Source of the DNA: Minisyncoccota bacterium
GTDB lineage: Bacteria > Patescibacteriota > Minisyncoccia > 2-02-FULL-40-12 > IGHO2-12-FULL-4
NCBI GenBank assembly: GCA_036517795.1
Contig: DATDTF010000011.1
Span: 9,772-73,771, forward strand
DNA: 64,000 bases
Direction of reading: 5' to 3'
The position numbers and the translations under genes are program-made. Position 1 is the first letter of the stretch, and the number at the start of each line of letters is the position of its first letter. Under the pieces are notes generated by a model. The model worked only from the letters and a program-made list of their open reading frames with translations, ran no database searches and was not told the DNA's origin. This document shows positions 5,531 to 57,884 of this stretch, one piece after another.

Positions 5531-5555
5531 GGTGTTTTGTTTTATACTTATTGTC

Positions 5556-14233: not shown

Positions 14234-14301
14234 AACTTGTCGACCCTAACTCTAAAAATAAAAAACCTCCCTGTCAATAAAGGAGGTTGTGTTATGAAAA
14301 C

Positions 14302-22730: not shown

Positions 22731-22731
22731 T

Positions 22732-24436: not shown

Positions 24437-24523
24437 TGGTGCCGGTGGTGGGAGTCGGACCCACAATCCCTTACGGGCGACGCATCTTAAGTGCGTTGCG
24501 TATGCCAATTCCGCCACACCGGC
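24437..24523 (-). tRNA. tRNA-Leu(UAA), type II with long variable arm
   Basis: GCCGGTG acceptor. D-arm GGCGGAATTGG. Anticodon loop CTTAAGA. Long variable arm. T-arm GGGTCCGACTCCC. Confidence 0.75.
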
Positions 24524-37959: not shown

Positions 37960-38044
37960 AACAATTTATTAAGAAACTCTTGGCCAATGAAGGCCAAGCT
38001 TTAGCGTCTAAAGCCAAAGCTTGAACTTCATTAAGCCTGAAGTT

Positions 38045-38725
38045 TTAAATTATTTCAACCAGCTTAAGTTTGTCACTTTTAAAACGATAAAGAGCTGCCG
38101 GACGGTTAGCCAGACCTCTTAACTCTTCTTTAACTGGCAGTAATATTCGCAAGGACAATATTTTTTTTCTGAAATTGCGTCTGTCCAGTCTTTTGTGAAG
38201 AATCGTCTCGTATAGATTCTGCAGTTCTGTTAGAGTAAATCTCTTGGGCATGAGAGTGAAGGCTATATTGGTGTAAGTTAATTTGGATTTAAGCCTTTCA
38301 AATGCAAATTTAATTACTTCTGCATGATCATACGCCAAGTGGGGGAGTTCCTTGACCGAAAACCAGCAAGCCTCATACTTTTGATCCGAATCCTTTTTAT
38401 ATTTCAACTTCGCCTCTTGACCCAAACCAAGATAAGCAACCGCCACAACCCTACCTCTCGGGTCTCTGTGAATACCGCTGAAAGTGTAAAGCTGTTCTAA
38501 ATAAGCGTTTTTTACACCACCTTTTCCCCAGAGATGCCTCCAAGCCGCTCGATCAGCCGTCTCTTTAGGATCGATCAAACCGCCGGGCAAACCCCAATGG
38601 TTAGCATAATAAGGAGGACGATCAACTTTAATCAAACGAACCAAAAGCTCTTTATTTTCAAAGGTAAAAAGAGCTGTATCAGCTGCCAAGACCGCAAATT
38701 TAAGTTTTGGTGTCGGTTTTTTCAT
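38045..38725 (-). CDS. nrtR: Nudix-related transcriptional regulator (NrtR-like): Nudix-like domain plus C-terminal winged helix
   Basis: Degenerate Nudix N-domain (HWGLPGGLIDPKE). C-terminal HTH-like segment. Adjacent to NAD salvage genes. Confidence 0.45.
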   Translation of the reverse strand: MKKPTPKLKFAVLAADTALFTFENKELLVRLIKVDRPPYYANHWGLPGGLIDPKETADRAAWRHLWGKGGVKNAYLEQLYTFSGIHRDPRGRVVAVAYLGLGQEAKLKYKKDSDQKYEACWFSVKELPHLAYDHAEVIKFAFERLKSKLTYTNIAFTLMPKRFTLTELQNLYETILHKRLDRRNFRKKILSLRILLPVKEELRGLANRPAALYRFKSDKLKLVEII

Positions 38726-38857
38726 GATTGTTTGTTAGTGTATTATATACACATACTACTCCCGCTTAAAAAACCTGTCAAGCCCAGTAGTCAACTTTAT
38801 ATGTCTGTTGACTTTAATTAGTGTTAGTAATACACTATCTATATTAGTCCATCACCT

Positions 38858-39703
38858 ATGCAAAGTCAAATAAAAACTATCGGTTTCTTTTATAGAGAGA
38901 ATCATTCTCTTAGTAAAGTCTGGGAGAACAAGATTGTAAAATGGCTTAAAAATAAATATCCAAAAGTTAAAGTTGTCCGAAAGCACCCGGAATTTTTGAT
39001 AGTTCTTGGAGGTGACGGCACAATACTGGAAGCAGTGAGAAAATTTGCTAAAAATACAGCTCCCACAATCTTGGGTCTCAATTTGGGTCATGTTGGTTTT
39101 TTAGCCTCAATAAGAAATCCGAAAAACTTTCTGACTGGTCTTGATAAGCTCTTTAAAGAAGGGCCCCGAATAATAAAAAAACTGATGGTGGAGGTTGAAG
39201 TAATCAGAAACAACAAAAAAGTATTCAGAACTAACGCCTTTAACGACGTTGTTGTTGAAAACCCTTTAGGGGTAGTGGAAATTGAGGTTAAAATTGAAAA
39301 AGATACAATTCAATGCGTTAGAGGCACCGGAGTTATGGTTTCTACAGCCAGCGGTTCAACAGCTTTCAACCTTTCAGCTCATGGACCAATCGTTATGCCG
39401 GATATAAAGTGCCTGATTGTGACTGAAATAATGGATCATAACATTCCGACACCCAGCATAATCGTTAAGCGGAACAGGGAAATAGAAATTAAAATCGCCA
39501 GTTTTAGGGAAAGAAAACTGATATCTTTAACCAAAACTAAAGAACCTTTTGATGTACTACTGATTGCCGACGGAGAAAACTTGTTTCCACTAAAAGAAAA
39601 GGATGCGGTTTTAGTCAGACGATCTTCGCGTTTAGTAAAGTTCGCTGAACTGGAAAAAAATTACTTTTTCAAAAGTCTGCAGGAAAAATTTTACTTCGGA
39701 TAG
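38858..39703 (+). CDS. nadK: NAD+ kinase
   Basis: GGDGTILEA motif and NGSTAFNLSAHGPIV. Confidence 0.85.
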   Translation: MQSQIKTIGFFYRENHSLSKVWENKIVKWLKNKYPKVKVVRKHPEFLIVLGGDGTILEAVRKFAKNTAPTILGLNLGHVGFLASIRNPKNFLTGLDKLFKEGPRIIKKLMVEVEVIRNNKKVFRTNAFNDVVVENPLGVVEIEVKIEKDTIQCVRGTGVMVSTASGSTAFNLSAHGPIVMPDIKCLIVTEIMDHNIPTPSIIVKRNREIEIKIASFRERKLISLTKTKEPFDVLLIADGENLFPLKEKDAVLVRRSSRLVKFAELEKNYFFKSLQEKFYFG

Positions 39704-39856: not shown

Positions 39857-41833
39857 ATGCCTAGTGGTCTTTTTGAAGGTTTAAACGAAAAACAATTAGA
39901 AGCAATACAGACCACGGAAGGTCCTGTTTTGGTTATTGCCGCCGCCGGCAGCGGTAAAACCAAGGTTCTGACTCACCGAATTGCCCACCTCATTCAGCGA
40001 GGGATAAAACCAGAAAACATACTGGCGGTCACTTTCACAAATAAAGCGGCGGGTGAGATGAGAGAGCGAGTTCGCAATTTACTCAAAAACTCTTCTGTTT
40101 TACCGCTACTTGGCACATTCCATTCAATATCAGCAAGGTTGTTAAGAAACGAGCTCGGGAAACTTGATTTGCCTTATGACTCTAATTTCGTGATTTACGA
40201 CACTGAAGACCAGCTGGGCGTTATCAAAAAGGTTATGGAGGAGTTGGAAATTGATAGTAAGAAAACAAATCCTCGGGCTATCCTTTCCAGAATATCGGAA
40301 GCGAAAACAAACTTAGCCGGACCAGAAGAGTATGTGAAATCCGCAAAAGATTTTTTCTCAAAAACAGTCGCCAGGATTTATCCGCTTTACCAAAAAAATC
40401 TTGAAACCAGCAACGCGATGGACTTTGATGATCTTCTTTTTTTGACAGTGAAAATGCTTAAACAAGAGAAAAACATACTGGAAAAATATCAAAACCTCTT
40501 TAGATATATCCTGGTTGATGAATACCAAGACACAAACAAACCACAATATCTTTTTCTGAAAATGCTGGCCCAAAAGCATAAAAATATTATGGCGGTGGGA
40601 GACGACTATCAATCAATATATTTATTCCGCCAGGCTGACATCCGTAATATTTTGAGTTTTGAAAAAGACTATCCGGAAGCTAAAATTGTTTTTTTGGAGC
40701 AAAACTATCGTTCCACCCAAAATATTCTGGCTGCCGCCCAGAACATAATCTCAAATAATAAGTTCCAGCGACATAAAAATCTCTGGACTGAAAATCAGGA
40801 AGGGGAAAAAATACTGCTCGCCGAACTCAGCAACGAAAGGGAAGAAGGCGGATTCATAACCGACGAAATAAAGAAGGGTCTGAAAACCGGCGCTGATTTG
40901 AACGACTTTTGCATCCTGTACCGAACGCACGCCCAGTCGCGTGCAATTGAAGAAGCCATGTTAAAAGCCGGTTTGCCTTACAAAATCATCGGCGGTTTAA
41001 AATTCTATGAGAGAAAAGAAGTTAAAGACATTTTAGCTTATTTGAGACTTCTGCTTAACCCGACAGACAACTTCAGTTTAGAAAGAATACACAACGTGCC
41101 AAGCAGGGGAGTAGGCAAAAAAACTTTTGAGAAGATATTGGAAACACAAAAACAGAAATCTTCCAAAAGCGTTTTTGAACTTTTCAAAGACCATAGAGAA
41201 GAATTAGACAAAAAGGCTTTATCCGGTTTAGCTTCGCTGAGCAAAACCATGAACAGCTTGGAAGAAAAACTGGACGAATTTTACCTCTCAAAACTTATAA
41301 AAAAACTTCTTCAGGAGATTGATTACCAAAAATTTCTTCAGGAAAAAACCGTTGACAGCGAGTCCCGCTGGGAAAACGTAAAAGAGCTTCTGACAGTTAC
41401 GGCAAAATATGACAGTTTGAAATCCCGTGAATCTCTTCCGATTTTTCTGGAAGAAGTTTCACTTATACAGGAAACGGATCAAATCAAAAACCAAGAAAAA
41501 AATGTAACCCTCATGACGATGCACGCTTCCAAAGGTTTGGAATTTCCTACCGTTTTTTTAGCCGGCATGGAAGAAGGACTATTCCCTCATCCCAGGTCGA
41601 CTCTTGATCCGGTTGAATTGGAAGAAGAGAGAAGGCTATGCTACGTCGGAATCACCAGAGCCAAAGAAAAACTTTACTTGACTCATTGTCAAAACCGCAT
41701 GGTTTATGGCTCTTCACAATTCAACCCAATCTCAAGATTTGTTTCTGAAATACCAGAGGACTTTGTCTCCGAAAACGCAAAAAAACCATTTAGGCGAGAT
41801 TTTAATTATGAGGACTTCATAGATTATGATTAA
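39857..41833 (+). CDS. pcrA: ATP-dependent DNA helicase PcrA/UvrD
   Basis: LNEKQLEAIQ..GPVLVIAAAGSGKT Walker A. DEYQDTN motif. 658 aa. Confidence 0.85.
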   Translation: MPSGLFEGLNEKQLEAIQTTEGPVLVIAAAGSGKTKVLTHRIAHLIQRGIKPENILAVTFTNKAAGEMRERVRNLLKNSSVLPLLGTFHSISARLLRNELGKLDLPYDSNFVIYDTEDQLGVIKKVMEELEIDSKKTNPRAILSRISEAKTNLAGPEEYVKSAKDFFSKTVARIYPLYQKNLETSNAMDFDDLLFLTVKMLKQEKNILEKYQNLFRYILVDEYQDTNKPQYLFLKMLAQKHKNIMAVGDDYQSIYLFRQADIRNILSFEKDYPEAKIVFLEQNYRSTQNILAAAQNIISNNKFQRHKNLWTENQEGEKILLAELSNEREEGGFITDEIKKGLKTGADLNDFCILYRTHAQSRAIEEAMLKAGLPYKIIGGLKFYERKEVKDILAYLRLLLNPTDNFSLERIHNVPSRGVGKKTFEKILETQKQKSSKSVFELFKDHREELDKKALSGLASLSKTMNSLEEKLDEFYLSKLIKKLLQEIDYQKFLQEKTVDSESRWENVKELLTVTAKYDSLKSRESLPIFLEEVSLIQETDQIKNQEKNVTLMTMHASKGLEFPTVFLAGMEEGLFPHPRSTLDPVELEEERRLCYVGITRAKEKLYLTHCQNRMVYGSSQFNPISRFVSEIPEDFVSENAKKPFRRDFNYEDFIDYD

Positions 41834-42758
41834 AGATAAAATAGTGAATAAAAAATATCAACCATCTTCCGACATTGCACTGCCGAGCTTTAGCGCCGTC
41901 AGCAAAAGTAAACCAAAAAGGGACTTCGCCAAAGGCGCGGAATGTCAAAGACAAGCTCAACATCGGCATCGGGACGCCAAAAAACTAGGACAAAACTTTC
42001 TAAAAAACACCGGAATACTTAAATCCATCGTTGGGATGGCTGAAATTTCAGCCGACGATATTGTTTTGGAGGTAGGCGCCGGCACGGGTCTGCTCACAGA
42101 GAAGCTAGCCGAAACCGGAGCCAAAATAATTGCTGTTGAAAAAGACCGGAACTTGATTCCGATTCTGGAAACCAAGTTTAAAAATCAAAAAAATGTTACA
42201 ATAATTGAAGGCGATATATTAAGGTTCGACCTTAATCTGACCAAGGTCGAACCTTGGAAATACAAGGTAGTGGGAAACATTCCGTATTATCTAACTTCGC
42301 ATTTGATAAGAAAAGTTTTAGAAGATTGGCCCACACCAAAACTAATTTTGTTCATGTTACAAAAAGAGGTGGCTCAAAGGATAGTTGCCAAACCTCCGAA
42401 AATGAACTTGCTTGCCTTATCTGTCCAGCTTTATGCGGACGCCCAGATAATGAGGAGCGTCTCAAAGAAAAATTTCTGGCCAGAACCAAAAGTTGATTCA
42501 GCTTTAATAAAAATACTGCCTAAAGACCGAGACGCAAAAGAAAAAAATGACATTGAAAAGATTTTGAAATTAGCTCGTTTGGCTTTTAGCGGTAAAAGAA
42601 AACAAATACTAAACAGTCTTTCAACCGGATTAAAAATTCCAAAGGAAAAACTTATCGGTACACTTCAGGAAGCCGGCATTGACAGCAAAAGACGCCCCGA
42701 GTCTCTAGAAATCAGCGAATGGTTAAAACTAAACCAAACTTTATCTTCGCAGTTTTAG
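41826..42758 (+). CDS. rsmA: 16S rRNA (adenine1518/1519-N6)-dimethyltransferase RsmA/KsgA
   Basis: KKLGQNFL start-of-family motif. SAM-binding VLEVGAGTGLLT. The roughly 50 aa N-terminal extension is encoded by a MITE copy. No in-frame ATG lies between the element and the KsgA core. Confidence 0.75.
   Translation: MIKDKIVNKKYQPSSDIALPSFSAVSKSKPKRDFAKGAECQRQAQHRHRDAKKLGQNFLKNTGILKSIVGMAEISADDIVLEVGAGTGLLTEKLAETGAKIIAVEKDRNLIPILETKFKNQKNVTIIEGDILRFDLNLTKVEPWKYKVVGNIPYYLTSHLIRKVLEDWPTPKLILFMLQKEVAQRIVAKPPKMNLLALSVQLYADAQIMRSVSKKNFWPEPKVDSALIKILPKDRDAKEKNDIEKILKLARLAFSGKRKQILNSLSTGLKIPKEKLIGTLQEAGIDSKRRPESLEISEWLKLNQTLSSQF
41868..41976. repeat. MITE-like element, full-length copy (about 109 bp) inside the rsmA 5' region
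   Basis: 5' tccgacattgcactgccgagctttagc ... aaaagggacttcgccaaaggcg ... caacatcggcatcgggacg 3'. Terminal inverted repeats CCGAYATTG/CAAYATCGG. Confidence 0.7.
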
Positions 42759-44305
42759 GTGGTTTGCTTCTGGCTTTTTCTTTGCCTTTTTTTAACCTCG
42801 GCTGGCTGGTGTTTCCCGCTCTGATACTTTTTCTTATCCTTCTGGAAATTCACCCGGAAAAAGCCTTTTCAAACGGCTTTTGGTTTGGTTTGGTTTATTT
42901 TTTGTCCGTCTTCAGATGGTTTTGGGACACTTATCCTCTTGAGGGGCTTGGCTTTGAAAATCCTTATCTTGCCGCCGGTATTTTGGCCTTTGCTTGGCTT
43001 CTGACTGCTCTGGCAATGTCTCTTCTTTGGGCAACGGCATTTTGGCTTTCTAAAAAAACAGAGAAAAAAACAAGCTGGACGGCTTTGCTTGTTTTCCCTT
43101 CAATATTTGTCGTATTTGAATACTTGAGAGCTTTTGTAATTTCCGCCCTCTGGTTCAGTCCGGGCAATATAATTTCTCCGGATTGGACAGCCGGCAACCT
43201 TGCTTACAATTTGCACAGCAACGGCTTAGTTCTCAAAATCTCGTCTCTGCTTGGCATCTACGGCGTTTCTTTTTTTGTCTTTCTCGCCGCCGTTTTAGTT
43301 TTTCTGTTTTTGGAAAAAAAACAATTTAAAAAGCTTTGGGTTTTTGTCGCTGTCTTAATCTTTTTTTCCTACGCCCCTTATCATTGGTTCTCCCCCGACA
43401 AAAGCGAAGAGAAAACAAAAGTAGCGGCCGTCCAAAGCTACATTCCAAGCCAGAAAAACTACAGCCCCAAAGAGCAGCTTTCTTTCTTTAAAAAACAACT
43501 TGAACTTCTGGACAAAATCGCCAAAGAACAACCCGAAACCAAACTGGTAGTTTTTCCCGAGGCCAGCAACTTTTTCACCAATCTAAGTTTATTTGGCAAC
43601 ACTCTAGATGTCGGCTTCTACTTCAATAATTTGTTTCCATCTGAAACTGCTGTTTTAGACAACTCTCATATACAGGAAAACTTTCTGAAAAAATCCAAAA
43701 CCATATACTTGGACTCCAAAAACGGTGTGGTTGGAGATTATGACAAAAAGCTTTTGACCCCGGGAGGGGAGTACGCGCCTTACCTTTTCAGTCTGTTGGA
43801 CAGAGTTTTGGGTATTGACTCTGAAGAACTGAAAAATTTTGAGGGGCTCCAAAGCGGCCGCAAACCGCCCTCCGCCGTAAAAACGGGTAACATAAATTTA
43901 GGCGCACTGGTGTGTTCCGATATTTCTTCGCCGTCCTTGGCCAGAAACATTTCCCTGTCCGGCGGAGAACTTATAGCCGTTCAAGGCAGTTTTGCTTTCG
44001 CCAACGGCTCCAAAGATTTAATCAGCCAAGTCAAAGCCATGGCCGCTTTGCGAGCCGCTGAAAACAACAAACACCTGATATATGCCGCAAATTATGGGCC
44101 GTCTTTTATAGTTTCCGGCAGTGGGAAAATGCTAAAAGAAAGCCGGAACAGAGGTTTTGAGATATTAACAGCTGATGTTGTATTAAATAAAGACAAAACA
44201 ATATATAATAAACTAGGAGATGGGCCGATTTTATTGGCCTCTTTGAGTGTATTGATAACCAGTTTTTTCTTTACTCCCAAAAAAAAGAAAAATGAATACA
44301 ACTAA
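42719..44305 (+). CDS. lnt: apolipoprotein N-acyltransferase
   Basis: About 7 N-terminal TMs plus a CN-hydrolase domain. Candidate E-K-C triad in VVFPEAS, KKLLTPGGEY and GALVCSD. Confidence 0.65.
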   Translation: MVKTKPNFIFAVLGGLLLAFSLPFFNLGWLVFPALILFLILLEIHPEKAFSNGFWFGLVYFLSVFRWFWDTYPLEGLGFENPYLAAGILAFAWLLTALAMSLLWATAFWLSKKTEKKTSWTALLVFPSIFVVFEYLRAFVISALWFSPGNIISPDWTAGNLAYNLHSNGLVLKISSLLGIYGVSFFVFLAAVLVFLFLEKKQFKKLWVFVAVLIFFSYAPYHWFSPDKSEEKTKVAAVQSYIPSQKNYSPKEQLSFFKKQLELLDKIAKEQPETKLVVFPEASNFFTNLSLFGNTLDVGFYFNNLFPSETAVLDNSHIQENFLKKSKTIYLDSKNGVVGDYDKKLLTPGGEYAPYLFSLLDRVLGIDSEELKNFEGLQSGRKPPSAVKTGNINLGALVCSDISSPSLARNISLSGGELIAVQGSFAFANGSKDLISQVKAMAALRAAENNKHLIYAANYGPSFIVSGSGKMLKESRNRGFEILTADVVLNKDKTIYNKLGDGPILLASLSVLITSFFFTPKKKKNEYN

Positions 44306-45284
44306 GACAATCAAAATATTTATGGTCATCCTGTTTGGAGCAGCCGGTTTAGTGTTGGCAAGAGTTGGTATTCTAATTAACAAGGCTTTCCACCCAGCCA
44401 CTGCCGCCATCTCTTTGCCGACTAAGGTTGATTACGAAGACAGCGACGACTTTGACCACGACGGCTTAAAAAATGCCGAAGAAGCGGTTTGGGGAAGCGA
44501 CCCATATAATCCCGATACCGATGGAGACGGCTATCTAGACGGTGAAGAAGTTTTTTCAGACCACAGCCCTACACAAGCAAATGATGACTCTCTTGCCAAA
44601 ACCAGAGAGTTTCTCGGCCTAAATTCAACAGAAAGATTAGCATATCTTGTTACTGGAGGAATATTAAGCGGTGACCTAAAAACCGGCAACCCTCAGATCT
44701 ACGCTCAATCAGTTGACAATACTGCCACAGCTACTGTCTACTCTGTCTTGTCGGCTTTAGAAGACATAAACGTCGGAGAAGAAATTAAAAACTTGGTTCC
44801 TGACTCAAAAGAATCGCAGGAAAAATATTTGAATGAGATTTTTAAAGTCGTATCTGGAGACATAACCGAACTTCTTCTTGGTCAGCCCAAAGAACTTGTT
44901 CTCCTTTTCAGTCCAGATCAAAACAACACAAGCAGAGAAATATATACCGACGAACAAAAAGAGAGAATAAAGACTAAATTCTTGCAACATTCCATAAAAT
45001 TCTCACAAGCTTTTGATCAACTTAATAATACTGAAGTTCCTCAAAGCTTGTCAAACATTCATAAAAAAACTCTAACACTTCTAAAAAAACTTGAACTGTA
45101 TTACCGCTCCATAGCTCTTTCAGCGGACGACCCTTTGAAGCAAATGATTGTTCTCGGCAATTTACAAAGTGTCTATCTGGAAGCCCAGCCCATTATTTTG
45201 GAAATTAACAGCAAGATAAAATCCAACAACCTCACTCCTCCTGACAGTGACTTTTTCGACATAACTCTGCTTTTGAATCAGTAA
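44292..45284 (+). CDS. membrane-anchored secreted protein with thrombospondin-type-3-like Ca-binding repeats
   Basis: Signal anchor. DSDDFDHDGLKNAEE and DTDGDGYLDGEEV (DxDxDGxxDxxE) repeats. 14 nt overlap with lnt. First gene of the T4SS-like operon. Confidence 0.4.
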   Translation: MNTTKTIKIFMVILFGAAGLVLARVGILINKAFHPATAAISLPTKVDYEDSDDFDHDGLKNAEEAVWGSDPYNPDTDGDGYLDGEEVFSDHSPTQANDDSLAKTREFLGLNSTERLAYLVTGGILSGDLKTGNPQIYAQSVDNTATATVYSVLSALEDINVGEEIKNLVPDSKESQEKYLNEIFKVVSGDITELLLGQPKELVLLFSPDQNNTSREIYTDEQKERIKTKFLQHSIKFSQAFDQLNNTEVPQSLSNIHKKTLTLLKKLELYYRSIALSADDPLKQMIVLGNLQSVYLEAQPIILEINSKIKSNNLTPPDSDFFDITLLLNQ

Positions 45285-45292
45285 AATTTTTT

Positions 45293-46384
45293 ATGAGAAA
45301 AAAAATAGTGATTTTAGTGCTCATCTTTTCTCTGGGTTTTAGTGCTCCTCTTTACGTTGCCCGAGGCGCAGCTATGGTTTTGTGGGTGGTCAAAGAGTTT
45401 GGTCTAGATTTGGTCGCCAGAGCTTTATCGAGAAGATTGCTTACAGCTTTGAATGATAGCGTCGTCGAAGCCATCAATCAACTGGGTGTTGAGGGTGGCA
45501 AGCCAGGAGCAACTTTTGTTCAAAACTGGAAAAGATTTTTGGCAGATGCTCAAAGAATAGGTGAAAATCAGTTTCGCAGTCAGTTGAGTTATGTCATTAG
45601 AAACGGCTTTCTTTGCGGTGATTTGCAAGGACCTCTTGCAACAGCCTTTCAAGCAACGGCTGGAGATTACATTAACATTGGTGAACCCGATTTAAATGCT
45701 GAACTTCAGCAAAGCACCCTGACACCATTTCAAACAAAAATAAAGTGTACTCTGCCAAATAGTGTACGAGAGGCTTTCAAAAAAGACTTTGGCAAGGGCG
45801 GAGGCTGGGAAACTTGGTCAAGAATAGTCCAACCTCAAAACAACTTATCCGGTGCACTGACTATCTCCCTTGAAGAACTGGCAAAGCAACGAGCTTCGCA
45901 AGAGTCAGCCAGACAAAATCAAGTAGCAGCGGGCAGTGGTTTTGCCGGAGTGCAAGACAGCTGTAAAGGTTTCGGAGCTAACTCCAAATGCTCTTTTTTG
46001 GGTGAAGTTGTCACACCCGGTGATATGCTAAGTGAGGGTGCCGCTGACTGGCTGGATTCCAACTCCAAATGGTTTGTTTCTTCCGATGAACTTTCGGAAG
46101 TTCTAATCAATATTATTAACGCCGCAGTCGGTAAACTGCAAAACTTTATAGCCAGCAAAACGTTTGGACTGCTTGGGGTACCGGCCGGTTCATCCTCTCA
46201 AGACAACTCTGCGAGTCAAGCCGGACAATACACTGGCAGGGTGCAAAATGATTGTATACCACTATGTATTACCCCAAAGAACAACGGCTGTGACAACACC
46301 AATCTTTTTACTTTTCCTGAAACGATAGACACTTGTTATGCTAAAGCCAAAGCCGAATGTGATAAACAATGCGCCGTACCTTAA
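45293..46384 (+). CDS. secreted protein with Cys-rich C-terminus
   Basis: Signal peptide. C-terminal CIPLCITPKNNGCDN...CYAKAKAECDKQC. Confidence 0.35.
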   Translation: MRKKIVILVLIFSLGFSAPLYVARGAAMVLWVVKEFGLDLVARALSRRLLTALNDSVVEAINQLGVEGGKPGATFVQNWKRFLADAQRIGENQFRSQLSYVIRNGFLCGDLQGPLATAFQATAGDYINIGEPDLNAELQQSTLTPFQTKIKCTLPNSVREAFKKDFGKGGGWETWSRIVQPQNNLSGALTISLEELAKQRASQESARQNQVAAGSGFAGVQDSCKGFGANSKCSFLGEVVTPGDMLSEGAADWLDSNSKWFVSSDELSEVLINIINAAVGKLQNFIASKTFGLLGVPAGSSSQDNSASQAGQYTGRVQNDCIPLCITPKNNGCDNTNLFTFPETIDTCYAKAKAECDKQCAVP

Positions 46385-46492
46385 GCTTAAAAAATGAAAG
46401 GCAGAACAATCTACAAAAAAAATAAAATTCATACTATCAATTTTCATTCTGGCTGTTTTTGTTTTTTCAACATCAAAAACTAACATATCTTT

Positions 46493-48802
46493 ATGTCTTT
46501 ATTTAGTATCAGCGACATAGTAAATTCTGCCATTGCTAAGATTATCTTATACATTCAAGGATTGGTCATGGGCTTCATAGGCACGGCTTTGGCATGGACA
46601 GCCTATGCCCTGGCTTGGTTCCTTAAATTTCAGGGAGGATTTTTTGAAGAGGTCGCCATTGTCAAAACTTCTTGGGAAGTTTTTCGCAACTTCGCCAACA
46701 TGTTTTTCATCTTAATTCTGATTATCATCGCCTTCGCCACTATTTTTGATATTCAAAACTACAACTGGAAGGGTCTGATGGCCAAGTTTATCGTCGCCGC
46801 TCTTTTGATAAATTTCAGTTTGGCAATAGGTGGATTTTTGATAGATGTTTCCAACAACTTATCAAACTTAGTGCTCAACCAGTTTGGTGATATCACCAGC
46901 GATCTGGCCGGCGGTTTTGGAATTACTAAACTAGGCGCCGCTTTGGGCGGAGGCACTAGTAGTATAAAAGCTGTTCTGGAAAAGTCTGCAGGTGACCCAG
47001 AAGCTTTAGCTCTGGGCGTCATAATCTCACTTAGTGGCATGCTGATTGTAGCCGTTATTACCTTACTCTCAATGCTCGCCGCCCTAGTTTTTTCCATGAT
47101 AAGAGTGCCTATTCTCTGGGCACTACTGATTGTCTCACCCCTAGCTTGGATCACCGGAATTTTACCTAACACCAGAGAGTTCAATAAAAAATGGTGGAAC
47201 TGGTTTATCGGCTGGACTTTCTTTCTGCCGACCTACCTATTTGCCCTTATGATGGGCATAGCAATTCTCAAAGGCAGGCCAGACTTAAGCGCCGCCGCAG
47301 TTTTTGCAGAACAGGCAAGCGGACCGGAAGGTCTGCCGACCAGAGCCGCCAACTTCTTTGGTTTCGCATTTCAAGATGTATTCTATTGGGGACTGACTGT
47401 AATTATTCTAATCGGCGGCCTGGCCGCTTCACTCAAGGCCAGTTTTGCCGCCGGCAGCGGCGCCACCAAAGCTTTCGGCAATATCAGTGGGACTATAAAC
47501 AACTGGGCCAAAAGAAAGGCCTACATTCCGGCCATCCAAAAAGCCGGCAAAGAAAAGCTGGCCGAGATTCAGGATACCGGGCTACAAGGCAAAGTCGGCC
47601 GCTTCCTGTATGGCGGCGAGAGGGCAGAGAGACTGCGGGCAGCAAGAGTCGCCGGTCTTTTAGGCAAAAAAGAAGCTATGTCTGAAGCCGAAGCGGCAGA
47701 AGTTCAGAAAAATTATGCCAAATACAAAGCCGAGGGTCTTGATAAAGACAAGACTGCTTTGGACGCTTTAAACAAACAAATTGGTACAGGCAGTCTTAGT
47801 AAATTCCAGGAACTGGCCGCCAGAAAACTGCGTGCTGAAAATGGTTGGGTTGCTGAAGGCAAAGCTGGAGAAACCGAGATAGAAGAAACGATCAGAACTG
47901 CCGGAGAGAATAGCAAGTTTGCACAAGAGTATGTTGACGCTCTTAAAAAGAATGGTTTTGAGGAGGCTCTGGGAAGCCAAGCTCAAGCGGAAGATCTCGC
48001 CAAGAGAACAACCATCTTGCCTCTAAAAAAGGCTATTTTGGAAACCATGATTAAGAATAACCAAATTCTCAGCGACACCATGGCTGAAATGGTTTTAGGA
48101 GTATTCAAAAACGATTCCAAGGCTGTCAAAGATGAAATTGAAAAGGGTTTACAGAAAAATATTAAAAACTTCTCTGACACCAAGAAGAAAAATGACCGAG
48201 CCGCCTATCTCCTTGACGCCAGCAAGAACAAAGGTATTAAACGGATACTAGCGAGGCAAATGTCTGAAGATGGTGAAATAAATACATACCAAAAATACAA
48301 AACTGCCGCCGAACTGTTCGGTGGAGAAAATGAAACCGAATCTAGAGACATGCTTAACAAAATAATTAAAGACAAACCACTTGGTCATGCTGATATTTTG
48401 TTTAGACAGAAACTGGCTAAAGCCGAAGCTGATGATACAATTTTGGTCGCAGATTACGACCCTCTAAGCCCGACCGCGACTACTCCTGCCAGAGAAAAAG
48501 AGTTTGTTGATCAGATTAAAGAAAAACTCCCCAAAATGGGCGCTAAGGCTATCGCCGAGACAGACATAGATATCTGGGAAAGACCTGTTTTTGAGACTGT
48601 TTTGAAAGATAAAATTGGTGAGCTAGAAAGAAAGGAACCAAGCAAACTAGGCAAAACTGGCGGAAGGGGCAAGGCAGGAGCAGGTAAGAGATATCTCTTA
48701 AGAATCATGAAAGTGTTTGAGCTTGACCCCAATCCCGAAAAAGAAGTTATTATGGAAAGAATCATAGCAGCGTCTAAAGCGGCCGGCATGCCCTGGCCTT
48801 AA
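46493..48802 (+). CDS. VirB6/TrbL-like polytopic membrane protein with long charged C-terminal domain (putative)
   Basis: About 8 TM helices in the first 330 aa, Trp-rich, then about 440 aa of Lys/Glu-rich coiled-coil-like region. Position matches PrgH/VirB6 in Gram-positive T4SS operons. Confidence 0.4.
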   Translation: MSLFSISDIVNSAIAKIILYIQGLVMGFIGTALAWTAYALAWFLKFQGGFFEEVAIVKTSWEVFRNFANMFFILILIIIAFATIFDIQNYNWKGLMAKFIVAALLINFSLAIGGFLIDVSNNLSNLVLNQFGDITSDLAGGFGITKLGAALGGGTSSIKAVLEKSAGDPEALALGVIISLSGMLIVAVITLLSMLAALVFSMIRVPILWALLIVSPLAWITGILPNTREFNKKWWNWFIGWTFFLPTYLFALMMGIAILKGRPDLSAAAVFAEQASGPEGLPTRAANFFGFAFQDVFYWGLTVIILIGGLAASLKASFAAGSGATKAFGNISGTINNWAKRKAYIPAIQKAGKEKLAEIQDTGLQGKVGRFLYGGERAERLRAARVAGLLGKKEAMSEAEAAEVQKNYAKYKAEGLDKDKTALDALNKQIGTGSLSKFQELAARKLRAENGWVAEGKAGETEIEETIRTAGENSKFAQEYVDALKKNGFEEALGSQAQAEDLAKRTTILPLKKAILETMIKNNQILSDTMAEMVLGVFKNDSKAVKDEIEKGLQKNIKNFSDTKKKNDRAAYLLDASKNKGIKRILARQMSEDGEINTYQKYKTAAELFGGENETESRDMLNKIIKDKPLGHADILFRQKLAKAEADDTILVADYDPLSPTATTPAREKEFVDQIKEKLPKMGAKAIAETDIDIWERPVFETVLKDKIGELERKEPSKLGKTGGRGKAGAGKRYLLRIMKVFELDPNPEKEVIMERIIAASKAAGMPWP

Positions 48803-48807
48803 ATAAA

Positions 48808-49299
48808 ATGAGAAATATCTACAGTCCAATTGAAGTTGATGACGACTCTTTACTGCTTGACGACGAAAAGCACGAGTTGTTTTACTCAAAAATTAATGCC
48901 TTGCCTCAAAACATTCAAGACTTGCTTTTTTCTTTGGACACAGAGGATAAATTAAAAAATATAGCTGTTCAAACCAAACTAAACCAGAATCAATCCATCG
49001 AGCTGACTCGCTTGGTTAGGGATGTGTTGATAAATGAAATCTATCTTGGAGACATAATCAAAGAGTCACAAAAACGCCTTGTTGTTAGTGAAGAATTTGC
49101 CCGTGAAATTGCCAACCAAATTGTTTCTGTAATTCTTGCTCCTGCCCTTGAAGATATTAAAAAAATTCACGTTGAGAAGTTCGGACGTCCCGCTGCCGAC
49201 GTTGCCACGCCTTCTAACAGCAAGTCACAAATCCCAGAAAGAGACAAGCCCCAGATAATAAACCCTGGCAATATAGTAAATCTTAGAAACAAAAATTAG
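48808..49299 (+). CDS. hypothetical protein (163 aa) in T4SS-like operon
   Basis: ORF only. 6 nt after the upstream stop. Confidence 0.3.
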   Translation: MRNIYSPIEVDDDSLLLDDEKHELFYSKINALPQNIQDLLFSLDTEDKLKNIAVQTKLNQNQSIELTRLVRDVLINEIYLGDIIKESQKRLVVSEEFAREIANQIVSVILAPALEDIKKIHVEKFGRPAADVATPSNSKSQIPERDKPQIINPGNIVNLRNKN

Positions 49300-49301
49300 C
49301 A

Positions 49302-49607
49302 ATGAGGTTTCAAGTTCCACAATTTATAGAGACGGAAGAAAAGATAATCGGACCCTTTACGATTAAGCAGTTCATTTTTATCACTATCGGCGGAATGCTT
49401 TTGTTCTTAATCTTTTTTCTGGTTACTCCCGGCTGGTTTGTGATTTTAGCCATACCCGTCATAGCTATTACTTTAAGTTTAGCGCTGATAAAAGTCGCTG
49501 AAATGCCTCTTTACTTATATCTTGCCCACGCTTTGAGCTTTGCTTTTAACCCGAAGAGGTATATCTACAGACCCGACCAAGAAGAAATAAATCATGGCCC
49601 AAAATAA
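49302..49607 (+). CDS. VirB3/PrgI-like small 2-TM protein (putative)
   Basis: 101 aa, two TM helices. Immediately precedes and overlaps the VirB4 N-terminal ORF by 14 nt, as virB3-virB4 pairs do. Confidence 0.35.
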   Translation: MRFQVPQFIETEEKIIGPFTIKQFIFITIGGMLLFLIFFLVTPGWFVILAIPVIAITLSLALIKVAEMPLYLYLAHALSFAFNPKRYIYRPDQEEINHGPK

Positions 49608-50217
49608 AAACCTGAACACGAAACAATTCGTTGACATTCACGACATTAAAGACGGCGTGGTCATACTTAAAAACGGCTCACTGCGCTTAATTTTAGAAAT
49701 TAGCTCCGTTAATTTTGATTTGAAATCAAGCGACGAACAGACGGCCATTATCAAAGCTTTTCAAAATTTCTTAAACTCACTTGATTTTCCTCTGCAAATT
49801 GTCGTGCATTCACGCCAGCTTGATATTAAAAACTATTTGGCTAAAACCCAAGTCCTTGTTGACCAGCTGGACAACGAACTTTTAAAAATTCAGGGAATTG
49901 AGTACATAAGATTTATAAAAGGCTTGACCGAGCTGGCCAACATTATGTCCAAAAGTTTTTATGTCGTGGTGCCTTTATACATAACTGAAGCCGCCTCAAA
50001 AAAGAGCCTTTTGGAAAACATAAAAAGCGTTTTTGGCACTGCCGCTCAAAAAATAAAGAGTCTTGAAGAACAAGACTTCAGTATATATAAAAGCCCGATA
50101 GAACAGCGGGCTGAAATTATAATGGAAGGCTTGCGCGGTATGGGCCTTGCTTCAAAAGTTTTGGACAAAGAAAGTTTAGTAAAAATATTCTACAATCTTT
50201 TTAACCCAAATGCCTAA
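49594..50217 (+). CDS. VirB4/TrbE-family ATPase, N-terminal domain (separate ORF)
   Basis: VDIHDIKDGVVILKNGSLRLILEISSVNFDLKS resembles the VirB4/TraE N-terminus. Ends 8 nt inside the next ORF. Confidence 0.55.
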   Translation: MAQNKNLNTKQFVDIHDIKDGVVILKNGSLRLILEISSVNFDLKSSDEQTAIIKAFQNFLNSLDFPLQIVVHSRQLDIKNYLAKTQVLVDQLDNELLKIQGIEYIRFIKGLTELANIMSKSFYVVVPLYITEAASKKSLLENIKSVFGTAAQKIKSLEEQDFSIYKSPIEQRAEIIMEGLRGMGLASKVLDKESLVKIFYNLFNPNA

Positions 50218-51982
50218 CGACCCAAACAAAATTACAGAGATAAAAACATCTGAATTTCTGGATGACCAGCTGGCTCCCAGCGCTATTAATATCTCCGGCA
50301 ATAACTTGCAAATCGGCGCCCGGTTTGCCAAGACTTTGTTTTTATCAACTTTGCCTAGATACCTAAACACTCAGTGGTTTTCGCCCGTCATCAATTTAGA
50401 CAGAGTTTTGGACATCTCAATCTACTTTCATCCGGCTGACTCGGGTACTGTTCTAAAAAAGTTAAGAGACAAGCTTGCCCGCTTGCAGGCTGAGGCCATA
50501 GAAGAAGCCAATCAAGGCAAGGTTCGCAACCCCATTCTTGACACGGCCATTTCGGACATTGAAGACTTGCGGGACACTATTCAGCAGGGGACAGACAGAT
50601 TTTTTGAGTTCGGCGTCTATATCACAATTTACGGCCAGAGCGAAAAAGACTTAGATGAGACTGAGTCAAAAATCAGAGGCCTGTTTGAGGCGCAGTTAAT
50701 TTATCTCAAACCGGCAACTTTCAGAATGAAAGAGGGTTTCCTTTCAACCCTGCCTTTGGATAACGACCTTTTAAACGCCCACAGTTCTCTGAACACTCAA
50801 CCCATTTCTTCGGTGTTTCCTTTTGTTTCTTACGACTTAACTTCTGACAGCGGCCTTCTGTACGGCATCAATACCCACAACAACTCCCTGATTCTTTTTG
50901 ACCGTTTTTCTTTGGAAAACTACAACAGTGTCGTTTTCGGCAAATCTGGGGGGGGTAAAAGCTACGTCGTTAAGTTAGAGATTCTAAGAAGCTTAATGTT
51001 AGGCACCGAGGTTTTCATAATTGACCCGGAAAACGAATACAAATACCTAGCTGATACAGTAGGCGGTTCTACGGTCAACATCTCCGTTGCTTCCGATAGC
51101 CACATTAACCCGTTTGACCTGCCTCAACCGGCGGCGGGAGAAGAGTTCAAAGATATCTTTCGGACACACATTTTGGACTTAACCGGTTTGTTTAAATTAA
51201 TGCTGGTAGAGCTTACGCCGGAAGAAAGCTCTTTACTTGACGAGGCGCTGATTCAGTCTTACGCCTTAAAAGACATAACTATGGAGAGCAATAACAGCCA
51301 AGGCGAGGTGCCGCTACTCTCTGACTTCCAAAATATTCTTGAAGGGCTTGCCGGAGCCGAATCTATGGCCATCCGGATAAAAAAATACACCGAAGGAACC
51401 TTTGCCGGATTTTTAAACAGACCGACAAATGTTTCCTTGGACAATAGGTTAGTTCTCTTCAGTATCAGAGACATGGAAGAAGAGTTGAGACCTATCGCCA
51501 TGTACCTTGTCTTAAATTATATCTGGACAAAGGTCCGCACTGTACTTAAAAAGAGAACCCTTGTCGTGGACGAGGCTTGGTGGTTGCTTAAATATGAGAT
51601 TGGCGGAGCTTTTTTGTACAATGTGGCCAAGAGAGCAAGAAAGTACTTTTTGGGACTGACAACAATTTCACAAGATGTGCCTGACTTTCTAAATTCTTCT
51701 TATGGCAAAGCAATCGTCACCAACTCCTCAATTCAAATTTTAATGAAGCAATCCGCCGCCTCAATTGAAGGCGTTAAGCAAACATTTAACCTTACCGATG
51801 CTGAAAAATTCTTTCTGCTGGAAGCCGGTGTCGGACACGGACTATTCTTTGCCGGCTCTAACCACGTCGGCATCAGAGTGGTTGCCTCATACACTGAAGA
51901 CCAAATTATCACTTCCGACCCCCGCCAGATTTTAGAAATTGAGAGAGCGAAAAAAGAGTGGGCCGAACAGCAAAAAACTTAG
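50210..51982 (+). CDS. VirB4/TrbE/CagE-family T4SS ATPase (C-terminal ATPase domain)
   Basis: Walker A FGKSGGGKSY. Walker B and signature LVVDEAWWLL (DEAW). TTISQDVPDF (TQ motif). Confidence 0.75.
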   Translation: MPNDPNKITEIKTSEFLDDQLAPSAINISGNNLQIGARFAKTLFLSTLPRYLNTQWFSPVINLDRVLDISIYFHPADSGTVLKKLRDKLARLQAEAIEEANQGKVRNPILDTAISDIEDLRDTIQQGTDRFFEFGVYITIYGQSEKDLDETESKIRGLFEAQLIYLKPATFRMKEGFLSTLPLDNDLLNAHSSLNTQPISSVFPFVSYDLTSDSGLLYGINTHNNSLILFDRFSLENYNSVVFGKSGGGKSYVVKLEILRSLMLGTEVFIIDPENEYKYLADTVGGSTVNISVASDSHINPFDLPQPAAGEEFKDIFRTHILDLTGLFKLMLVELTPEESSLLDEALIQSYALKDITMESNNSQGEVPLLSDFQNILEGLAGAESMAIRIKKYTEGTFAGFLNRPTNVSLDNRLVLFSIRDMEEELRPIAMYLVLNYIWTKVRTVLKKRTLVVDEAWWLLKYEIGGAFLYNVAKRARKYFLGLTTISQDVPDFLNSSYGKAIVTNSSIQILMKQSAASIEGVKQTFNLTDAEKFFLLEAGVGHGLFFAGSNHVGIRVVASYTEDQIITSDPRQILEIERAKKEWAEQQKT

Positions 51983-51991
51983 TCAACACTT

Positions 51992-52660
51992 ATGGCCGAC
52001 CAAATAGAAGAATCGTCCGAAAATGAAACTGATGAAGAAGAAGCGATAGCTTTAGTTTTTCAAACTGAACAAGAACTAAATTTGGCCAAACAGAGATTGC
52101 TGGCAGTTTCAGAAGAAGGACAAAGCTATAAAAACCCTTCTTTACTAAAATATGGATTTTTATTTTTTGTCGCTGGTGCCATAGATGCCGTTGATTTTTT
52201 GGATTTGACAGGTGCGGGCATAATAATTGCAAAGATAGTTTCTATAGCCGGAACTTGTATTATATATTTCACTTTATGGCTTACCGACAGCCGATTCAAA
52301 AAAGCCCATGAACTTATTGGCAATCTGGAAGAAGCAATCTTGGATGTTCAGCAAAAAGCAGCCAGAGTAAGCAGTTTGGCAATGAGAACATCTCGAGTTC
52401 TTAGCAAGATACCTGGCATGAAAGGATTGGCCAGAAGAATACCGAGAACTATGGTTAAAATTAGACGATTAGCCCGTAAAAACCCGCTTACGAAAGTTCT
52501 AATTGGAGGTGCAATTAACCTCATACCATTTCTGGCAATAATTAATCTAATGATAGTTTGGGTATGGCTAAATTATCACGACGAGAAAAAAGCCTTCAAG
52601 CACGCCCGACAGTCATCACAAGAGGCGTTAACACAAATTGAAATGACGGGAACAGCATGA
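51992..52660 (+). CDS. membrane protein (222 aa), acidic N-terminus, 3 TM, in T4SS-like operon
   Basis: ORF with clear TM helices. Occupies the position of VirB8/PrgL-like proteins. No motif support. Confidence 0.3.
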   Translation: MADQIEESSENETDEEEAIALVFQTEQELNLAKQRLLAVSEEGQSYKNPSLLKYGFLFFVAGAIDAVDFLDLTGAGIIIAKIVSIAGTCIIYFTLWLTDSRFKKAHELIGNLEEAILDVQQKAARVSSLAMRTSRVLSKIPGMKGLARRIPRTMVKIRRLARKNPLTKVLIGGAINLIPFLAIINLMIVWVWLNYHDEKKAFKHARQSSQEALTQIEMTGTA

Positions 52661-52686
52661 TAAAGTAGAGTCAGTGGTAAGAAACT

Positions 52687-52795
52687 CAATTTAATTCCGA
52701 TATTGCTCTGCCGAGCTTTAGCAAGTGTCAGCTGGGATAAAGTCAAAAGGGACTTTGCCAAAGGCGGAGTGTGTCAAAGACAAGAACAATATCGG
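52687..52795. repeat. MITE-like element, full-length copy (intergenic)
   Basis: ccgatattgctctgccgagctttagc...aaaagggactttgccaaaggcgg...caatatcggcattgggacg. About 80% identical to the 41868 copy. Confidence 0.7.
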
Positions 52796-52805
52796 CATTG
52801 GGACG

Positions 52806-53900
52806 ATGAACCAAAAAACAATTCTTACAATTCTAATACTTGTGCTGGCTGGTATAGTAACCTTTTTGGGAGGCTACCTTTTGGCAAACAAAGGCACCGG
52901 ACAAACTGCCAACATAGCCGGACTGAACCGTTTTTCAAATTTCTCCGCCAATAAGCCCGAATCTGAAAAAACCACTACAGTAAAGTTAAACCGCTTGAGC
53001 AGTGTCAAGGTTGTGAGTCCGGCCATTTCTGAAAACGGCAGAAATATTAACTACTTTGAAAAGGGCACGGGAAAAATTTTCTCCAGTGACTTTGCCGGAC
53101 AAAGCATTAATATTATCAACGGCAACATTAAAGAAGACGTTACCGGAGCTGTCTGGTCAAAAAACGGTTGGCAAGCAGTTGTCGCAAGAAAAACTTCCCG
53201 CGGACAAGTTTTTAGCCTGTCTGACTTAAAAATTGACATATTAACAGATCTAAATGAAAAGATGTCAGGAATAACCTGGTCTCCGGACGGACAAAAAATA
53301 GCTTACTTGTTTTTTGACTCTTCAGCAGAAGAAGGAAACATCAGTATTGCAAATCCCGATGGCTCATCCTTTAAAAACGTTCTGCCCACCAGAAATAGCC
53401 AATTAAAAATATCTTGGCCCAGTAAGGATAGCCTTGCTTTCTATAGTCCGAGTGGGGTAGACCGAAGTTTGTTCCTGCTAAATATGGAAACTGGGGAGCT
53501 GGAGAAAATTTTGGAGTCAGCCAACAACTTAAAAACTCTCTGGTCTCCAGATGGCTTAAATTTAATTTATTCTCACAGCAAAGAGGACGGTAGTGTAGTG
53601 ACAAACTTGCTTCAACTTAAAGAAGATAACCGTTCTGTTTTAGATCTCAGCCTGCAGACCAATGCCGATAAATGCGTTTGGAGTTTAAACTCACAAAAAT
53701 TTTATTGCGGAGGAACTAAAGCCGACGGCGCGGAGGAGGGTCTTTATGAATTTGACCTAACTAAAAAGGAATTTGGTTTGGTGTTTCAGTCCAGTTCTGT
53801 CGACCAAATTGAAATTGAAAAACCTTTCTTATCACCAGTAGAAAATTTCATCTTTTTTACAAACGGCTACGATCAGTATCTCTTCTCTATTAGCCTTTAA
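52806..53900 (+). CDS. secreted PD40/TolB-like beta-propeller repeat protein
   Basis: N-terminal TM/signal (MNQKTILTILILVLAGIV). Repeated WSPDGxxIAY / WSPDGLNLIYS motifs. Start trimmed to exclude repeat-encoded residues. Confidence 0.5.
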   Translation: MNQKTILTILILVLAGIVTFLGGYLLANKGTGQTANIAGLNRFSNFSANKPESEKTTTVKLNRLSSVKVVSPAISENGRNINYFEKGTGKIFSSDFAGQSINIINGNIKEDVTGAVWSKNGWQAVVARKTSRGQVFSLSDLKIDILTDLNEKMSGITWSPDGQKIAYLFFDSSAEEGNISIANPDGSSFKNVLPTRNSQLKISWPSKDSLAFYSPSGVDRSLFLLNMETGELEKILESANNLKTLWSPDGLNLIYSHSKEDGSVVTNLLQLKEDNRSVLDLSLQTNADKCVWSLNSQKFYCGGTKADGAEEGLYEFDLTKKEFGLVFQSSSVDQIEIEKPFLSPVENFIFFTNGYDQYLFSISL

Positions 53901-53939
53901 AATAAAAACTGGGATTATATAATCCCAGTTTTTATTACT

Positions 53940-55821: not shown

Positions 55822-55959
55822 TTAAACAGTAAGCTTGTGCCGGCCTTTGCGTCGGCGTCTTAACAGCACTTTTCGCCCTGATTTTTTCTGTGATCTTTTC
55901 AAAAATCCGTGCTTGTTTTTCCTCTTTTTGGTTTTAGGACGATATAATGTTGATTTCAT
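55822..55959 (-). CDS. rpmH: 50S ribosomal protein L34
   Basis: Not in the ORF track (45 aa). Manual translation gives MKSTLYRPKTKKRKNKHGFLKRSQKKSGRKVLLRRRRKGRHKLTV. Confidence 0.85.
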   Translation of the reverse strand: MKSTLYRPKTKKRKNKHGFLKRSQKKSGRKVLLRRRRKGRHKLTV

Positions 55960-57636: not shown

Positions 57637-57884
57637 GTTAAAATAATTGTTGATAAGGTTGTTAACATTTTTGGGATTACTGGATGACAGTTTGAGTACA
57701 ACTTTCAACTTACAAATATTTTTTGAAAGTTAAGCTATTTTTCTACCAAGGTTATTAAATCTTTATCAACAGTATTTCCTATAAATAAAATATGAAAAAG
57801 ATTTTATTTATCAATGTTTTCTAACTGTTATCCACAATTATTGCTATCTTAATAATAGTAATAATAAATCTTTATCTAATTATT
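57637..57884. promoter_or_regulatory. probable oriC (DnaA boxes plus AT-rich unwinding element) in the dnaA-dnaN spacer
   Basis: Perfect TTATCCACA at 57828-57836. TTATCAACA-type boxes near 57652 and 57771. Long A/T tracts (aataatagtaataataaatctttatctaattattatgattat). Confidence 0.5.

Follow-up and report, generated by a model that had tools for sequence, protein, structure and literature searches.

A nine-gene, origin-proximal operon of a Minisyncoccota bacterium probably encodes a Patescibacteria-clade type IV secretion system with a two-chain VirB4

The question considered here is which kind of machine is encoded by a run of type IV secretion system (T4SS)-like genes that lies next to the dnaA region in the genome of a Minisyncoccota bacterium (assembly GCA_036517795.1, contig DATDTF010000011.1). 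The stretch of DNA analyzed, hereafter the window, is 64,000 nucleotides (nt) long, and all coordinates refer to it. An earlier reading of the same letters, made without database searches (the sequence-only reading), described nine to ten co-directional, tightly packed genes at this site. Direction and packing were borne out, and the count was settled at nine: nine intact open reading frames (ORFs), all confirmed on the + strand, fill 44292-53900 between lnt and a hairpin (Table 1), and the junctions along the run measure -14, +8, +108, +5, +2, -14, -8, +9 and +64 nt. A PrgI hairpin, a two-chain VirB4, a VirB6-fold protein and five to six co-inherited accessory genes were found in this one operon. 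It very probably represents a T4SS of the Patescibacteria clade that is derived from monoderm (MPF_FATA) conjugation machinery and has become uncoupled from conjugation. Curated profiles support three of the genes, and a fourth, the TrsD-like gene, matched under the cut-off of its model.

The core of the assignment is formed by the ATPase gene and the two genes before it. The ATPase matched the NCBIfam model NF045971 over positions 188-734 of 752 (E 1.5e-102, 344.2 bits against a cut-off of 325), as well as the Pfam families P-loop_TraG, AAA_10, DUF87 and CagE_TrbE_VirB, and both its Walker A motif (GKSGGGKS, amino acid residues (aa) 244-251) and its Walker B motif (LVVDEAW, aa 451-457) were intact, so that the VirB4 ATPase named in the sequence-only reading was found where it had been placed. 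Its protein is identical to GenBank OGY67681.1, annotated as 'conjugal transfer protein TraC', and VirB4, TrsD and DnaA are all identical to GenBank entries of a Candidatus Harrisonbacteria metagenome-assembled genome (MAG; class Paceibacteria) from the RIFCSP groundwater. Judged from its sequence, this VirB4 is of the monoderm MPF_FATA type, with its nearest relatives in Patescibacteria. The 101-aa protein that had been called VirB3-like was assigned to the PrgI family above the Pfam threshold (PF12666, E 5.8e-11, 43.2 bits against a cut-off of 27, profile positions 2-91 of 91). Between these two lies a 207-aa ORF that shares 14 nt with PrgI and 8 nt with VirB4. It matched the NCBIfam model VirB4_plasma at positions 98-252 (E 1.2e-7), a CD1110 VirB4 model at positions 11-149 (E 9.5e-7) and the TrsD/TraD model NF041427 (E 5.4e-7, under the model cut-off), and it covers the N-terminal ∼150-190 positions of the VirB4 models that are missing from the 590-aa chain.

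The 'split VirB4' of the sequence-only reading thus corresponds to the TrsD plus VirB4 of the literature, and the split was compared across the 80 nearest VirB4 genome loci (VirB4 identity 53-92%), nearly all of which belong to Patescibacteria-type MAGs, several with other database labels. PrgI, TrsD and VirB4 were present in 70, 74 and 80 of the 80 loci, respectively, that is, wherever the contig allows, and PrgI lay directly upstream of TrsD in 70 of the 80. The TrsD-like and VirB4 ORFs were separate in all 74 species-representative genomes holding both and in 25 of 26 metagenome loci, which makes 99 split loci out of 100. In the genome loci, the separation spans all three relative frames, with varied junctions. 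The single fused case is a 793-aa ORF at 6170-8551 of locus L149 (metagenome contig Ga0247727_10002890), in which aa 4-220 correspond to TrsD and aa 225-791 to VirB4. Because of this natural fusion, the two chains are considered collinear with a full-length VirB4; the fusion itself may have arisen by re-fusion, or it may be left over from the unsplit state. On the comparison of these sequences, the split is old and maintained, and a frameshift or pseudogene reading of it was ruled out by the 99 split loci, the three frames and the varied junctions.

The third gene, g3, was less easily placed. The sequence-only reading had taken its 769-aa product for a VirB6-like protein, and sequence profiles did not bear this out. 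No Pfam or NCBIfam match was obtained for g3, and no significant match to TrbL, whose profile matched two of 60 g3 homologues (best E 0.0015). A profile search of the PDB sequences with g3 found nothing, and hhalign of its N-terminal profile with the single PrgH and TrwI sequences gave nothing significant. Comparison by hhalign with single pCF10 and R388 proteins is an insensitive approach, and the negatives that it gave for g1, g2, g4, g8 and TrsD carry no weight, because PrgI, the positive control, reached a probability of only 9.6%. A Pfam tag, PF19590, precomputed for about a quarter of the g3 homologues, could not be reproduced in the local Pfam, was absent from the literature search and was not used.

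The part of the claim that stood was the fold. A topology scan of g3 showed ∼7 hydrophobic helices and a long tail. In an AlphaFold2 model built from 60 homologues, with a mean predicted local distance difference test (pLDDT) score of 84, ∼7 long membrane helices (aa 1-322) are followed by a disordered basic linker (aa 323-353) and an all-alpha solenoid of ∼380 aa (about aa 390-769, pLDDT >90). The modeled bundle of ∼7 long, mostly hydrophobic helices corresponds to a VirB6 fold. When the model was compared with 48,164 PDB chains, DotA and TrwI/VirB6 were the best matches among natural proteins, and the other top matches were designed helical repeats aligned to the tail. Foldseek gave no significant PDB match to the model and no transporter, the unrelated fold against which the VirB6-like claim had been set; R388 TrwI/VirB6 chains were among its weak matches, with a probability of up to 0.95. 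Sequence identity of g3 to the VirB6 and DotA channel proteins was 9-11%. According to its predicted fold and its gene position, and not its sequence, g3 is accepted as VirB6-like and as belonging to the 'extended VirB6' type, a class described as poorly understood (PMC12857230). The VirB6 of R388 has seven long helices, five of them hydrophobic, and forms a pentameric stalk base that touches VirB3 and VirB4 (PMC9259494). Unlike R388 TrwI (PDB 7o3v) and Legionella DotA (PDB 9ngy), g3 has an additional C-terminal alpha-solenoid, and no VirB5 partner was recognized at its locus, in contrast to those systems. Since the basic linker follows the last helix, the positive-inside rule suggests that the solenoid is cytoplasmic.

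The remaining genes of the operon are accessory. The TSP3 repeats reported for g1 were recovered with the Pfam model TSP3_bac (29.7 bits against a cut-off of 25); its C-terminal domain of ∼230 aa has no recognized fold, and the protein is probably extracellular. The Cys-rich secreted protein of the sequence-only reading, g2, indeed combines ten Cys with an N-terminal hydrophobic leader, and its family has invariant positions, GGGW..W..PQNN plus Glu, Arg and Cys. Searched with the g2 profile at E<=1e-3, a set of 1.84 billion proteins gave 3,337 cluster representatives. The conserved core of the family had no Pfam domain in ten of ten diverse members, and the g2 model had no fold match in the PDB. 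When metagenome relatives of g2 (24-75% identity) were used as starting points, PrgI, TrsD and VirB4 were found together in all 19 loci with at least 8 kb downstream, all 33 loci of sufficient length had a g3-like gene starting -130 to +420 nt from the g2 stop, and a g1-like gene lay ∼2 kb upstream of that stop in most of the g2-containing loci. The g2 family is T4SS-linked in every testable sampled locus. Two proteins of other organisms found with the g2 profile, P0225 (627 aa) and P0334 (898 aa), join a g1-like N-terminal half, which matched g1 by BLASTP at E 1e-20 in each, to a g2-like C-terminal half, and these natural fusions suggest that g1 and g2 act as one unit.

No Pfam or NCBIfam match was obtained for g4. 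Iterated hidden Markov model searches recovered it in 17 of 44 genome loci and found it immediately behind g3 in most metagenome loci; in related loci, a protein free of transmembrane (TM) segments and of variable size (139-612 aa) stands between the VirB6-like gene and PrgI. The g8 protein, which belongs to no known family, is acidic in its N-terminal region; a hydrophobic hairpin and a basic loop follow, and its last TM segment bears an IP/LP motif. A word-indexed search gave 28 close homologues, and in 77 of 90 loci the + strand gene that follows VirB4 encodes a small (<=350 aa) membrane protein; judged by eye, these post-VirB4 proteins share a common layout. The candidate assignments of g8 as a VirB2-like pilin or as VirB8 were rejected for want of Pfam support in g8 and nine positional analogues, and g8 is unlikely to be an NTF2-like VirB8 because its soluble parts appear too short for such a domain. 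The last gene, g9, was confirmed as a PD40 propeller (26.9 bits against a cut-off of 20.9), with the TolB propeller model TIGR02800 matching at E 3.8e-11, under its cut-off. Its GTG start at 52725 adds 27 residues ahead of a typical Met-Asn-Gln-Lys and hydrophobic anchor, and the true start is more likely the ATG at 52806, which gives a gap of 145 nt after g8. Of 58 genome loci, 34 carry a propeller gene downstream on the same strand at a distance of up to 9 kb, as do most of the long metagenome loci.

Another arrangement was seen directly after the post-VirB4 small membrane protein in three loci (L012, L015 and L064), namely arrays of two to three paralogous genes whose products have ∼730-1,060 aa and two TM segments each; these could be variable surface proteins or substrates.

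The position of the operon was also informative. In the closest loci, the full order UvrD-KsgA-(Lnt)-g1-g2-g3-g4-PrgI-TrsD-VirB4-g8-PD40-Jag-YidC-RnpA-DnaA-DnaN was kept at 26-88% protein identity, and the genes were not scattered. The signs of a plasmid or integrative element were lacking in the window: the same embedding, from lnt to jag-yidC-rnpA-rpmH-dnaA, recurs across species, no integrase was found, and the GC content of the operon is the same as that of its flanks. The cumulative GC skew turns at its minimum at 54-56 kb, and the dnaA-dnaN spacer (57637-57884) holds three DnaA-box-like 9-mers, at 57648, 57763 and 57828, the last of them a perfect match; on these two grounds, oriC is placed within 2-4 kb of the operon end. 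As the sequence-only reading had maintained from the neighboring genes, and as the synteny with ksgA, lnt, jag, yidC, rnpA, dnaA and dnaN across species supports, the T4SS operon is a core chromosomal, origin-proximal locus and not a mobile element. At its end, a terminator scan revealed a perfect 16-bp stem between the propeller gene and the convergent jag. This hairpin matches a consensus only and is likely a bidirectional terminator that closes the operon. A promoter scan was uninformative (32 sites observed against 24 expected).

Table 1. Coordinates of the operon genes and flanking features in the window
Feature	Position	Strand	Description or basis
UvrD, KsgA, Lnt			upstream flank of the operon
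lnt	42719-44305		directly upstream of the T4SS operon
g1	44292..45284	+	330 aa; single-pass anchored (TM about aa 11-29); two TSP3 Ca-binding repeats
g2	45293..46384	+	363 aa; Cys-rich (10 Cys), secreted or anchored; N-terminal hydrophobic signal-like leader
g3, 'extended VirB6' type	46493..48802	+	769 aa; predicted fold and gene position
g4	48808..49299	+	163 aa; soluble, no TM
PrgI/VirB3-family membrane hairpin	49302..49607	+	101 aa; Pfam PF12666
TrsD-like	49594..50217	+	207 aa; VirB4 N-terminal domain as own chain
VirB4 ATPase	50210..51982	+	590 aa; CD1110 family without N-terminal domain
g8, membrane protein	51992..52660	+	222 aa; ORF and TM prediction
g9, PD40/TolB-like beta-propeller	52725..53900	+	N-terminally anchored; Pfam PD40; one TM
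Hairpin	53901-53936		perfect 16-bp stem; terminator scan; likely bidirectional terminator
jag, yidC, yidD, rnpA, rpmH, dnaA, dnaN			downstream flank of the operon
rpmH	55822-55959		part of the downstream flank

The UvrD/PcrA-type helicase and KsgA genes (39857-42758 in the window) also occur near the T4SS core elsewhere, on differing sides (loci L016-L059): Harrison/Yanofsky-like genomes have them upstream, and Moranbacteria-like genomes have them 3-6 kb downstream of VirB4. KsgA was found in the 10-kb flanks of 40 of the 80 loci and UvrD in those of 30.

The components that were sought and not found define the system further. Among the window ORFs scanned (nearly all of those of at least 200 aa, with Pfam and NCBIfam), no coupling protein, relaxase or integrase was detected. 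The corresponding statement of the sequence-only reading therefore holds for these ORFs, and its 'no VirD4' applies to the window only, given that distant VirD4-like genes are described in the literature. As regards a VirB2-like pilin, no small ORF with at least two TM segments was found in the window besides g8 and two lycopene-cyclase-type ORFs, and g8 and its nine positional analogues had no match to TrbC/VirB2 or to a pilin family in Pfam. A VirB1-like wall hydrolase and a VirB8-like protein were not matched by Pfam or NCBIfam in g1, g2, g4, g8 or g9.

The novelty implied by the sequence-only reading did not hold, since the same system, with the same arguments, namely a Gram-positive-type core, the lack of a relaxase, the position near the origin and a probable new use in host interaction, has been published (PMC10633639; PMC12102498) and reviewed (PMC12857230), and the operon is a rediscovery of a known kind. 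Wang et al. 2023 (Cell, PMC10633639) described the Saccharibacteria T4SS as essential for epibiotic growth, relaxase-less and Gram-positive-like, with comEC dispensable. In their survey of 3,035 Patescibacteria genomes, Quinonero-Coronel et al. 2025 (Microb Genom, PMC12102498) found a monophyletic Patescibacteria VirB4 clade nested in MPF_FATA; TrsD was the commonest companion, PrgI/VirB3 and VirB6 lay close to virB4, and the location in Paceibacteria was near dnaA, dnaN, rnpA, rpmH and ksgA. In the same survey, relaxases were found in only 103 of the 3,035 genomes, and VirD4-like genes in most, usually far from virB4; in S. epibionticum, the distant t4cp is not essential, whereas the T4SS genes are. 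Its dataset includes Candidatus Harrisonbacteria RIFCSP genomes, with VirB4 scored 'Yes', and a 2025 review counts the Patescibacteria systems as newcomers to the T4SS superfamily (PMC12857230).

The present operon resembles the Patescibacteria-clade T4SS in its monoderm-type VirB4, in TrsD and PrgI/VirB3 directly upstream, in a VirB6-like gene nearby, in a cluster free of relaxase and coupling protein and in its dnaA/dnaN/rnpA/rpmH/ksgA neighborhood. It differs in that no VirB2-like pilin gene or array was found in the window, whereas Saccharimonadia and about half of the assemblies have one; the TSP3/Cys-rich module, the post-VirB4 membrane protein and the PD40 propeller are not mentioned in the main text of PMC12102498, and essentiality has been reported for a Saccharibacterium, not for Paceibacteria. 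With pCF10 PrgH-PrgI-PrgJ it shares the order VirB6-like, VirB3-like, VirB4, the PrgI family and the VirB4 subfamily CD1110, and with the pGO1 subclass (pGO1/pIP501 TrsC-TrsD-TrsE = TraC-TraD-TraE) a separate TrsD-type protein before VirB4 (PMC12102498). The VirB4, VirB3 and VirB6 of a conjugative monoderm T4SS core were found, and the coupling protein and the relaxase with oriT were not found among the window ORFs scanned. Of the further parts of the Gram-positive conjugative cores, neither a PrgK/TraG-type wall hydrolase nor a PrgL/TraM VirB8-like protein was recognized in the window by sequence, nor were PcfC/TraJ or LPXTG adhesins found there. In contrast to those cores, the operon stands at a conserved chromosomal site, not on a plasmid or an integrative and conjugative element (ICE). 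Moreover, with 769 aa against 266, g3 has three times the length of PrgH, and it carries the 380-aa solenoid tail. The increment over the published work is limited: it consists of the fold evidence for g3, the split statistics of VirB4 with the rare fusion, the definition of a set of accessory genes inherited together, above all the g1-g2 module and the extent of the g2 family, and the lack of a pilin gene in this compact variant.

By analogy with R388 (PMC9259494), VirB4 hexamers would dock at the membrane via TrsD and PrgI, and the docked VirB4 would contact an oligomeric VirB6-like base that could form a membrane channel or stalk base. The cytoplasmic solenoid of g3 may provide a docking surface or receive substrates, perhaps in place of a coupling protein, while the outward-facing g1-g2 unit, g8 and the anchored propeller might make up, or be attached to, the section that spans the wall and touches the host. 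As to the function, the most plausible proposal, which we put slightly below an even chance, is that the machine uses ATP to export proteins (or a surface structure) on contact, onto the host cell or into it, in support of the episymbiotic lifestyle, and that it does not serve DNA conjugation. Export is favored because the core is of the exporting, conjugative type, because relaxases are rare in the phylum, and because the T4SS of S. epibionticum is essential whereas comEC and t4cp are not. Taken as a whole, the patescibacterial T4SS identity, the mechanism and the export function together are considered a likely explanation of the locus. A more specific proposal is offered tentatively and is, on balance, rather doubtful: the five accessory genes might encode structural subunits particular to the lineage, which in Paceibacteria take the place of VirB8, VirB1, VirB5 and the coupling protein, with g1-g2 as a wall-spanning or host-contact tip on the VirB6 base and the solenoid as a substrate receptor, the whole forming a structurally uncharacterized feeding or attachment organelle.

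Several points weigh against the overall explanation of the locus. The VirB6 assignment of g3 rests on a predicted structure, with sequence profiles below significance. The extracellular part of the model is based on topology and synteny, because no VirB8-, VirB1- or VirB2-like component was detected in the window, and a coupling protein may be encoded elsewhere in the genome. No substrate, effector or signal could be identified at the locus, the function has been shown for no member of the Paceibacteria, and the role of the Saccharibacterial T4SS is called 'completely unknown' in a review (PMC11665869).

The main rival to export is import, in which the T4SS would take up DNA, nucleotides or other host molecules, as in the ComB system of H. 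pylori or the archaeal Ced system, and so feed a nucleotide auxotroph. Such a role has been proposed for the Saccharibacterial T4SS, in which competence is dispensable (PMC11665869), and it would agree with the missing coupling protein and relaxase near the locus, with the UvrD/PcrA-type helicase gene, which 30 of 80 loci keep linked to the T4SS on one side or the other, and with weak P-loop-level matches to CedB and CedD. These matches, however, lie far under the cut-offs (35.7 bits against 700 for CedB and 16.6 against 600 for CedD) and concern the ATPase core only, the VirB4 is of the conjugative CD1110 type, no ComB- or Ced-specific component was found, and the UvrD-KsgA pair is perhaps just origin-proximal housekeeping. 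We regard import as improbable, though a contender to be reckoned with.

The homology of the core to conjugative Gram-positive systems, together with the VirD4-like genes in most Patescibacteria genomes and the relaxases in about 100 of them (PMC12102498), would also suit a functional conjugation or mobilization apparatus whose coupling protein, relaxase and oriT are located at another genomic site or on an element of their own. This is very unlikely, given the small share of relaxase-bearing genomes, the dispensable distant t4cp beside essential T4SS genes in S. epibionticum, a synteny with core genes across species that is unlike a transferable element, and the negative scan of nearly all ORFs of at least 200 aa in the 64-kb window for a coupling protein, relaxase or integrase. 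A decaying ICE remnant with a frameshifted virB4 might be suspected from the two overlapping ORFs of VirB4 in different frames and from the undetected canonical VirB8, VirB1 and coupling protein. The split recurs, however, in 99 of 100 related loci, the nine ORFs are intact and conserved down to 25-55% identity across species, the Walker motifs are preserved, and neither an integrase nor a GC anomaly was seen; flanking repeats, for which no search was made, were not noticed either. With the split-locus statistics, this cross-species conservation and the L149 fusion, the remnant is effectively refuted, and hardly any likelihood is left to it.

The patescibacterial T4SS is one of a small number of machines whose essential role in the epibiotic life of candidate phyla radiation (CPR) bacteria has been shown. 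The window adds no new kind of system to it, but a compact, pilin-less, nine-gene Paceibacteria example with clean boundaries, and the co-inherited families worth targeting are the g1-g2 module, g4, g8, the anchored propeller and the VirB6 solenoid tail.

Several other features of the window were recorded. The sole mobile-element-like signal, 38 kb from the T4SS, is a 243-aa ORF at 5529-6260 (+) with an IS200-like Y1 transposase domain (E 1.5e-7). In the segment 20428-23351 (+), a spermidine-synthase domain occurs in a membrane protein of 698 aa, and two small overlapping membrane ORFs follow it; the one at 23046-23351 had no Pfam match, and the one at 22624-23058 matched the lycopene cyclase domain with 28.5 bits (cut-off 27). 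A 164-aa HNH endonuclease ORF (24529-25023, -) adjoins tRNA-Leu (24437-24523). The region 35643-39703 holds an NAD salvage and regulation cluster, comprising a NAMPT/NAPRTase-family enzyme, a cytidylyltransferase-Nudix fusion, an NrtR-type Nudix regulator and an NAD kinase. Finally, an operon on the - strand (11401-16362) encodes PrkA (AAA plus kinase), a YeaH-like DUF444 protein and SpoVR, a stress- or sporulation-associated trio in a reduced CPR genome.

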